A stretch of 10,488 nt of DNA from Candidatus Woesearchaeota archaeon. GTDB lineage: Archaea > Nanobdellota > Nanobdellia > Nanobdellales > CAZNIQ01. Each line of letters starts with the position of its first letter. Position 1 is the first letter of the stretch. This document shows positions 6,515 through 6,570 of the stretch, in pieces. Where the stretch lies: positions 1-10,488 of the forward strand of contig CAZNIQ010000023.1 of assembly GCA_964573185.1 (NCBI GenBank), in the 5' to 3' direction. The position numbers were made by a program, and so were the translations under genes. A model generated the notes under the pieces. That model ran no database searches. It saw only the letters and a program-made list of their open reading frames with translations, and was not told the DNA's origin.

Positions 6515-6570
6515 TGTGACCCGCTGGGGTGACGGGTGGTCATTGCTCCCACCCGCCGGTTCCGCGGGCC
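6515..6570 (-). ncRNA. Candidate single-hairpin box H/ACA guide sRNA (pseudouridylation guide)
   Basis: Minus-strand sequence: GGCCCGCGGAACCGGCGGGUGGGAGCAAUGACCACCCGUCACCCCAGCGGGUCACA (56 nt, about 73 percent G+C). The lower stem pairs 6570-6564 with 6524-6518 (7 bp, including one G.U that pairs only on this strand). An internal loop (pocket) has strands GGAACCGG and UCACCCCA. The upper stem is 7 bp, 6555-6549 with 6539-6533. The terminal loop GAGCAAUGA could form tandem sheared G.A pairs, giving a K-loop type L7Ae site. ACA (6517-6515) follows the lower stem directly, 15 nt after the upper stem. AC and a U5 run come next. A TTTAAA box lies at -30..-25. Confidence 0.6.

Follow-up and report, generated by a model that had tools for sequence, protein, structure and literature searches.

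A probable single-hairpin H/ACA guide RNA gene between the tRNA-Ala and NFACT genes of a Candidatus Woesearchaeota archaeon

The stretch analysed here (the window) comprises 10,488 nucleotides (nt) of contig CAZNIQ010000023.1 from a Candidatus Woesearchaeota archaeon and holds a GC-rich hairpin at positions 6515-6570, located between the gene of a transfer RNA (tRNA), tRNA-Ala(GGC) (6403-6478, minus strand), and an NFACT_N gene (6600-7640, plus strand). We suggest that this element is very probably the gene for a single-hairpin box H/ACA guide small RNA (sRNA) of about 60 nt encoded on the minus strand. This assignment had been proposed from the letters of the window alone (the sequence-only reading), and it is now supported by the conservation pattern of an orthologous element and by an alignment to the Rfam family RF02796, which stays below the gathering threshold of this family.

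The element differs strongly from its surroundings in base composition. Its G+C content is 73.2% vs 29.4% for the window, and at a cutoff of 62% G+C per 40 nt the window contains just three islands, namely tRNA-Val, tRNA-Ala and the hairpin. The element is single-copy, and no open reading frame (ORF) of at least 50 amino acids (aa) overlaps it. Hence, the location between the tRNA-Ala and NFACT genes, the G+C content of about 73% and the lack of an ORF were all given correctly by the sequence-only reading.

When read from 6570 to 6515 on the minus strand, the element consists of GGCCCGC, GGAACCGG, CGGGUGG, GAGCAAUGA, CCACCCG, UCACCCCA, GCGGGUC and ACA, followed by AC and UUUUU (6512-6508). An internal loop of 8+8 nt, the pocket, is placed between two stems of 7 base pairs (bp). 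The lower stem contains a G.U pair at 6569/6519 and in the free RNA is extended to 9 bp across a bulged A, with two extra G-C pairs in the minimum-free-energy fold; the upper stem spans 7-9 bp across the folds. The GA...UGA apical loop is a candidate kink-loop (K-loop), in which tandem sheared G.A pairs may be formed for L7Ae. Counted from the 7-bp upper stem, the ACA triplet is 15 nt away; counted from the G.U closing pair 6556/6532, the distance is 14 nt. The first T of the upstream TTTAAA box sits at -30 from the 5' G, and the box shares bases with the start codon of NFACT, which is read from the opposite strand. All the hairpin elements drawn in the sequence-only reading were recovered in the sequence and the fold, including the two optional G-C pairs across the bulged A, the GA...GA loop, the ACA spacing of 15 nt, the U5 run and the TTTAAA box at -30. 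A box C/D sRNA was considered and rejected, as there is no CUGA in the element and no RUGAUGA common to the element and its ortholog.

The minus-strand fold has an energy of -33.8 kcal/mol and a z-score of -4.0, and none of 200 shuffles equals it. The plus-strand fold has a z-score of -1.1 and is equalled by 30 of 200 shuffles. The G.U pair, the GA...UGA loop, the ACA box and the difference in fold quality all favour the minus strand; that the first three exist on this strand only, as had been stated before, was confirmed. This comparison bears directly on another explanation, namely that the hairpin acts on the plus strand as a cis-regulatory element of the NFACT promoter or 5' region, or at the DNA level as a protein-binding inverted repeat. 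In favour of such a role, the distance from the end of the hairpin to the NFACT ATG is 29 nt, with a conserved placement in the orthologous locus. However, the plus-strand fold is no better than shuffles, the G.U pair of the window becomes a C-A mismatch there, and the ACA, the GA...UGA signature and the RF02796 match are found on the minus strand only. In addition, the position of the A/T box TTAAAA, at about -29 to -24, suggests that the NFACT messenger RNA (mRNA) is leaderless or near-leaderless and would thus exclude the hairpin. We therefore consider a regulatory element of NFACT highly improbable.

Relatives of the NFACT and SecF proteins encoded in the window are extremely scarce among 5.8 billion protein clusters; they were found in the same strain (European Nucleotide Archive contig L080, with an identical element), in a contig of GCA_054017035.1 (L001) and its Logan copy (L002), and in the remote contigs L003 and L079, in which the element is absent. 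The identity of L001 to the window is 63% for NFACT and 59% for SecF. In L001 the element occupies 9917-9972 (minus strand), and the order SecF, tRNA, element, NFACT is the same as in the window. Its sequence is GGCCCGC, GGAACCGG, UCGGCUG, GAACGAUGA, CAGCCGA, UCACCCUA, GCGGGCC and ACA, and then U5.

The differences between the two orthologs are distributed unevenly. The 5' pocket strand (0/8) and the ACA (0/3) are identical, and the 3' pocket strand differs at one of 8 positions, a C to U change that still allows pairing with G. Two of 9 loop positions differ, with the GA and UGA unchanged (0/5). The lower stem carries a single difference in 14 positions, by which the G.U pair becomes G-C, and the upper stem carries 8 in 14. 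All 14 stem pairs are standard in both sequences, and 4 of the 7 upper-stem pairs are changed on both sides; compensatory changes of this kind in an orthologous locus are what the sequence-only reading had proposed to look for, and they are seen here in two sequences. When the 3' partners were shifted by 1-3 columns as a control, 25-43% of the cells paired and no double changes occurred. The L001 hairpin folds with a z-score of -5.6, RNAalifold of the two sequences gives the same structure, and the promoter-like TTTAAA and terminator-like U5 are conserved in position. The comparison thus supports conservation of the guide-RNA type, in which the helices would be kept as helices, and the pocket strands, the loop signature and the ACA as sequence.

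The same pattern makes it hardly credible that the element arose by chance as a GC-rich hairpin, that it terminates transcription, or that it is a mobile or repeated sequence, in each case without an RNA function of its own. Intergenic hairpins are common in archaea, and a U5 run follows this one. On the minus strand, however, no protein gene ends upstream of the hairpin, so there is nothing to terminate, archaeal termination needs only oligo-T, and a terminator scan called none; the occurrence in a single copy argues against a repeat. Compensatory changes beside an internal loop that stays fixed point to selection for a specific structure. Finally, a purpose-built descriptor of an H/ACA K-loop hairpin (7-9 bp in the lower stem and 6-9 bp in the upper one, pocket strands between them, a 7-12 nt loop of the form GA...GA, and an ACA at a distance of 14-16 nt from the upper stem) matched only the element and its orthologous copies on both strands of 640 kb of loci, a set that includes 72 GC-rich bacterial loci and three ribosomal RNA (rRNA) operons, with no background matches.

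A search on a much larger scale was made with the pattern GGAACCGG-N7-GA-N3-14-TGA-N7-TCACCC over 596 Gb of GTDB species genomes (185,579 species). It gave 72 matches, all of them by chance and nearly all bacterial, with at most 5 of 7 upper-stem pairs. Neither the genome of the window nor that of L001 was returned, from which we conclude that the lineage is absent from this collection. Viral contigs gave no match to either the guide pattern or the NFACT protein query.

At gathering thresholds Rfam recognizes only the two tRNAs of the window. The sole non-tRNA match with E < 0.01 over the whole window is RF02796 (Pab160/Pf9), which aligns over its full model length exactly at 6515-6570 on the minus strand, with 35.5 bits against a gathering threshold of 47.4 (E = 1.6e-4 for a 321-nt region and 5.3e-3 for the whole window). 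Hence, the covariance-model search proposed by the sequence-only reading returned an archaeal H/ACA family at the exact coordinates, although not at the level needed for a family assignment. Pab160 is the Pyrococcus abyssi counterpart of Pf9, a single-hairpin H/ACA sRNA, and its reconstituted sRNA-protein particles pseudouridylate position 922 of the 16S rRNA (PMC2377435). The element shares with Pab160/Pf9 the 7 upper-stem pairs, the 15-nt distance between upper stem and ACA and the positions of the GA/UGA of the L7Ae motif; its GA...UGA signature is aligned by cmscan to the kink-turn (K-turn) of Pab160. The Pab160/Pf9 pockets, GGAAACCGC and UCGCUCC, loosely resemble GG-AACCGG and UCACCCC of the window. 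The two differ, however, in that Pab160/Pf9 has a K-turn with an apical stem where the element has a 9-nt K-loop, and a lower stem of 9 bp instead of 7 bp, with the pocket strands of the element correspondingly longer. Membership in the Pab160 family was rejected on three grounds, namely the different guide sequences, a score under the threshold and the failure of the model to detect the ortholog. By analogy, the element would work like Pf9, yet it is outside the Pab160 family. The 16S target of Pf9, which we take to be GGAGCG-UG-CGGUUU (pseudouridine 922 in P. abyssi and 910 in Pyrococcus furiosus) from the Rfam consensus pocket and the archaeal 16S sequence, was also rejected as a target of the element, as CACCCC and GGAACCG are unable to pair with GGAGCG and CGGUUUAA.

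Other known H/ACA systems provide further points of reference. Single-motif archaeal H/ACA sRNAs with a K-loop are known, for example Pab21 and motif 2 of Pab40 (PMC2377435). The element shares the lower stem, the pocket and the ANA spacing with the consensus model of Toffano-Nioche et al. 2015 (PMC4652768), and reaches its 10 layers only if the G.U pair 6556/6532 is counted. The 159-nt double-hairpin H/ACA sRNA of Nanoarchaeum equitans likewise combines a GC-rich sRNA and an AT-rich genome with a TTTAAA about 26-30 nt upstream and an oligo-T terminator (PMC3491384); it has two hairpins and K-turn bulges, in contrast to the one hairpin and K-loop found here, and it was rejected as a homologue, its guide sequences being unrelated. 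The Hgc RNAs (HgcE, HgcF and HgcG) of Methanocaldococcus jannaschii were reportedly found by Klein, Misulovin and Eddy in 2002 as GC islands in an AT-rich hyperthermophile, that is, by the same detection logic, and several of them are reported to have been recognized later as H/ACA guides. The Rfam Hgc families show no match to the element region even at E <= 10. A plus-strand Hrs10 match (24.5 bits against a gathering threshold of 108) was dismissed as chance, and other weak Rfam matches likewise.

The register of the pocket determines the predicted target. According to the published geometry rules, the lower stem has 7-9 bp, the ANA box is 14-15(16) nt from the closing pair, and the GA stem has 10 layers (PMC4652768; PMC2377435). 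In the element, 9 layers are counted to the second G.A with a 7-bp upper stem and 10 when G6556.U6532 is included. This G.U pair is invariant and is predicted in both single-sequence folds as well as by RNAalifold. We suggest that the conserved G.U pair probably closes the pocket, with 8 bp and two sheared G.A pairs giving the 10 layers, and 14 nt to the ACA. The G.U-closed register agrees with the Pf9 alignment, where a single nucleotide flanking the upper stem on either side does not pair with the target. Free RNA closes a further G-C pair, plus two pairs at the pocket floor in the window; therefore, in this model the pocket must open partly in the ribonucleoprotein (RNP). With the G.U closing pair, the most likely predicted target is 5'-(U)GGGGUG-UN-CGGUUCC-3'. 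The target proposed by the sequence-only reading for the widest pocket, GGGGUGA-UN-CCGGUUCC, is probably one register too wide and fits the geometry rules less well; neither in the window nor in L001 does this 17-nt sequence find a match, even when 3 mismatches are allowed.

The target search covered the rRNA operons of other organisms, namely the Escherichia coli rrnH operon (L076) and the plasmid-borne operons of Haladaptatus (L077) and Natrinema (L078), in which every U was scored against both pocket strands. By a wide margin, the highest-scoring site is 5'-GGGGUG-UUA-CGGUUCC-3' in the Haladaptatus 23S rRNA, with 6 Watson-Crick pairs to CACCCC and 7 to GGAACCG. The homologous site in the Natrinema 23S rRNA has a weaker 3' half, and nowhere else in the three operons do the pocket strands find at least 5 plus at least 4 contiguous pairs; in particular, no 16S site surfaced in these E. 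coli and haloarchaeal scans. A wobble-tolerant scan of all loci of the lineage gave nothing convincing.

The Haladaptatus site has its start 35 nt on the 5' side of AGUACGAGAGGA, the sarcin-ricin loop sequence. In the Rfam archaeal large-subunit (LSU) rRNA model, where the consensus at the site is gGggGUG-uu-cGccGcC, it covers the end of the domain-V closing helix, four unpaired bases (UG and uu) and the 5' strand of the domain-VI-closing helix (H94). Its positional equivalent in E. coli is UGGGCG-CU-GGAGAAC, 2622-2636, according to our alignment. The half of the site that is conserved in archaea, GGGGUG and the UU after it, meets the needs of the 3' guide strand exactly, and the C to U change of L001 would keep the pairing with the same target G. 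The 3' guide strand is the functionally more important one (PMC2377435). The other half of the target lies in a helix of variable archaeal sequence and would have to read CGGUUCC in this lineage. The best candidate target, though a weak one, is thus the junction in the 23S rRNA at which the domain-V closing helix (H73) meets H94 (E. coli 2628/2629), about 25 nt away from the sarcin-ricin loop on its 5' side. A metagenome scan with the pattern GGGGTG-N2-4-YGGTTYY-N6-36-AGTACGAGAGGA, anchored on the sarcin-ricin loop, was run on Joint Genome Institute (JGI) contigs.

Several observations weigh against the guide RNA assignment and its proposed target. Only two distinct sequences are available, so the covariation is one comparison, and 25 of 500 shuffles reach the observed per-pair values. 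The RF02796 score is under the gathering threshold. The L001 ortholog has no RF02796 match at E <= 1, and because of this we conclude that part of the score of the window is chance similarity of G-rich stems. The 7-bp upper stem, as it had been drawn from the sequence, falls one layer short of the 10-layer rule, and the free-RNA fold closes two further pairs, which would bring the distance to the ACA to 13 nt. As for the target, its score is reached in 1.5-2.3% of trials with shuffled pockets (6 of 400 and 7 of 300). The spacer of the Haladaptatus site has 3 nt, not 2; a UNN spacer was shown to work once, in Pab19. Lastly, the scan of the JGI contigs gave two haloarchaeal 23S genes and one chance match, and no AT-rich archaeon.

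We propose the following sequence of events for the H/ACA guide RNA. Transcription of the minus strand would start from its own TTTAAA box. In N. equitans box A TTTAAA is placed 26 nt upstream of transcription starts and an oligo-T terminator is used (PMC3491384). According to the archaeal oligo-T rule, the 3' end would form in the U5 run, a few nucleotides past the ACA. By analogy with archaeal H/ACA RNPs, L7Ae would bind the apical GA...UGA K-loop, Cbf5 would bind the ACA box and the lower stem, and Nop10 and Gar1 would complete the particle. The strands of the internal loop would then pair with rRNA on either side of an unpaired U-N, thus placing the U in the active site of Cbf5, where it would be converted to pseudouridine. 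Genes for Cbf5, Nop10, Gar1 and L7Ae were not found in the stretches read, the 10.5-kb window and 21 kb of L001.

A structured RNA with an L7Ae-binding K-loop might also serve a purpose other than guiding, as a regulatory or chaperone hairpin, or as a module of a tRNA-precursor 5' leader that is removed by RNase P. The tRNA begins 36 nt downstream on the same strand, the genome encodes RNase P subunit p30, co-transcripts of sRNA and tRNA are known in N. equitans (PMC3491384), and the target of the guide is unproven; each of these points is in favour of such an RNA. However, it leaves unexplained why 15 of the 16 bases of the internal loop are fixed, together with an ACA at the canonical 14-15 nt, while the upper stem varies. 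Moreover, the U5 run and a separate A/T box set the element apart from the tRNA, and the element is retained although the downstream tRNA differs between the two genomes. We consider a non-guide RNA unlikely, and the H/ACA guide RNA remains the preferred assignment. The features of its gene are collected in Table 1.

Table 1. Features of the predicted H/ACA sRNA gene in the window and their conservation in L001
Feature	Position	Strand	Basis or conservation
H/ACA sRNA core, single hairpin, 5' G to ACA box, 56 nt	6515-6570	-	Sequence, fold, RF02796 alignment, descriptor, ortholog covariation
Lower stem, 5' strand GGCCCGC, partner 6518-6524	6564-6570	-	7/7 pairs retained in both orthologs, one G.U to G-C
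5' guide (pocket) strand GGAACCGG	6556-6563	-	0/8 differences between orthologs
Upper stem, 5' strand CGGGUGG	6549-6555	-	4/7 pairs altered on both sides in L001, all paired
Apical loop GAGCAAUGA, candidate K-loop for L7Ae	6540-6548	-	5' GA and 3' UGA invariant; 2 inner bases differ
Upper stem, 3' strand CCACCCG	6533-6539	-	Ortholog pairing
3' guide (pocket) strand UCACCCCA	6525-6532	-	1/8 differences, C to U at base 7 (window 6526)
Lower stem, 3' strand GCGGGUC	6518-6524	-	Ortholog pairing
ACA box	6515-6517	-	Sequence; invariant in L001
U5 run, 2 nt past ACA	6508-6512	-	Sequence; U5 also in L001
TTTAAA box A (TATA), -30 to -25 from sRNA 5' end	6595-6600	-	Sequence; L001 has ATAAAAAA at equal distance

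The flanks of the element are compact. The A/T box TTTTTAAAG at 6504-6512 (minus strand), about 26-34 nt upstream of the 5' end of tRNA-Ala, contains the U5 run, and this one short A/T tract may double as the terminator of the sRNA and the TATA box of the tRNA. A sigma-70 scan match at the same positions is irrelevant in an archaeon. On the other side, the A/T box TTAAAA (6571-6576) abuts the 5' end of the sRNA and precedes the NFACT ATG (6600) by about 24-29 nt. The promoters of the sRNA and NFACT thus appear to be interleaved head to head, at 6570-6602 in the window and, in a conserved arrangement, at 9973-10003 in L001.

The tRNA beside the sRNA has a nearly identical body in the two genomes and a different identity. 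In the window it is tRNA-Ala(GGC) with G3.U70, and in L001 (9788-9881, minus strand) it has the anticodon UAU and G3-C70, with an 18-nt insert (intron) after the anticodon loop in the cmscan alignment; it is presumably tRNA-Ile(UAU). Of 167 archaeal genomes, only those of N. equitans and Ca. Korarchaeum cryptofilum were found to have a tRNA-Ile(UAU) (PMC6000648). The orthologous tRNA locus may have undergone a switch of anticodon or identity, and this gives a hint at the affinities of the lineage. RNase P p30, encoded in the window, distinguishes this lineage from N. equitans, where p30 is not present (PMC3491384). The G+C content of L001 is 27.5%, and the tRNAs and the sRNA of the lineage have 67-74%. 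Such AT-rich DNA with RNAs of 73% G+C suggests that the lineage is thermophilic.

The genes of the window are arranged in the order amino-acid permease/methyltransferase fusion, RNase P p30, Trm1, two unknown proteins, SecF, tRNA, element, NFACT, AFOR-like protein and SNase. The NFACT protein (346 aa) covers positions 7-377 of the 456-position NFACT_N model and has no C-terminal NFACT-R part, and the AFOR-like protein (8295-9788, minus strand; 497 aa) gives a partial match to the C-terminal domains (positions 20-176 of 385); both look shortened in comparison with the Pfam models. The fusion protein of 598 aa combines an amino-acid permease (residues 7-400) with a class I S-adenosylmethionine (SAM) methyltransferase (residues 425-576), which is an unusual domain combination. 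It is conserved at 574-2370 (plus strand) in the window, 3890-5686 in L001 and 2839-4635 in L080. In L080, about 1.1 kb upstream of the permease-methyltransferase gene and past the left end of the window, a HEPN / NTP_transf_2 nucleotidyltransferase gene pair is located at 1077-1734 (minus strand), which is a toxin-antitoxin-like module. A short GC-rich stretch of L001 (11313-11357) within a DHH/Cdc45-like gene is probably just coding sequence.

H/ACA guides are a familiar class of archaeal RNAs, and the element is very probably an unannotated member of it that is assignable to no Rfam family. It is an expected component of archaeal biology and introduces no new mechanism. Nevertheless, an H/ACA guide is gained for a lineage of which 5.8 billion protein clusters hold just two genomes. 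Such guides escape Rfam annotation at gathering thresholds, and the combination of a GC island, a K-loop and the ACA geometry serves as a detection heuristic that recovers the element.

The candidate target by the sarcin-ricin loop is a checkable prediction. We know of no pseudouridine reported at the E. coli 2628/2629 junction in E. coli, yeast or P. abyssi, and a literature search for pseudouridine at helix 94 gave nothing relevant. The fuller picture, in which a lineage of 29% G+C with Nanoarchaeota- or Korarchaeota-like tRNA traits carries a pseudouridine at the equivalent of E. coli 2628/2629 and links its sRNA to NFACT through the interleaved promoters, is possible but doubtful, and we put it forward as speculation. 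If true, the interleaved promoters would be a possible regulatory link between the sRNA and NFACT, a gene of ribosome quality control. If the lineage is a small-genome, DPANN-like thermophile, its retention of RNA-guided pseudouridylation would inform on the minimal machinery of ribosome maturation.

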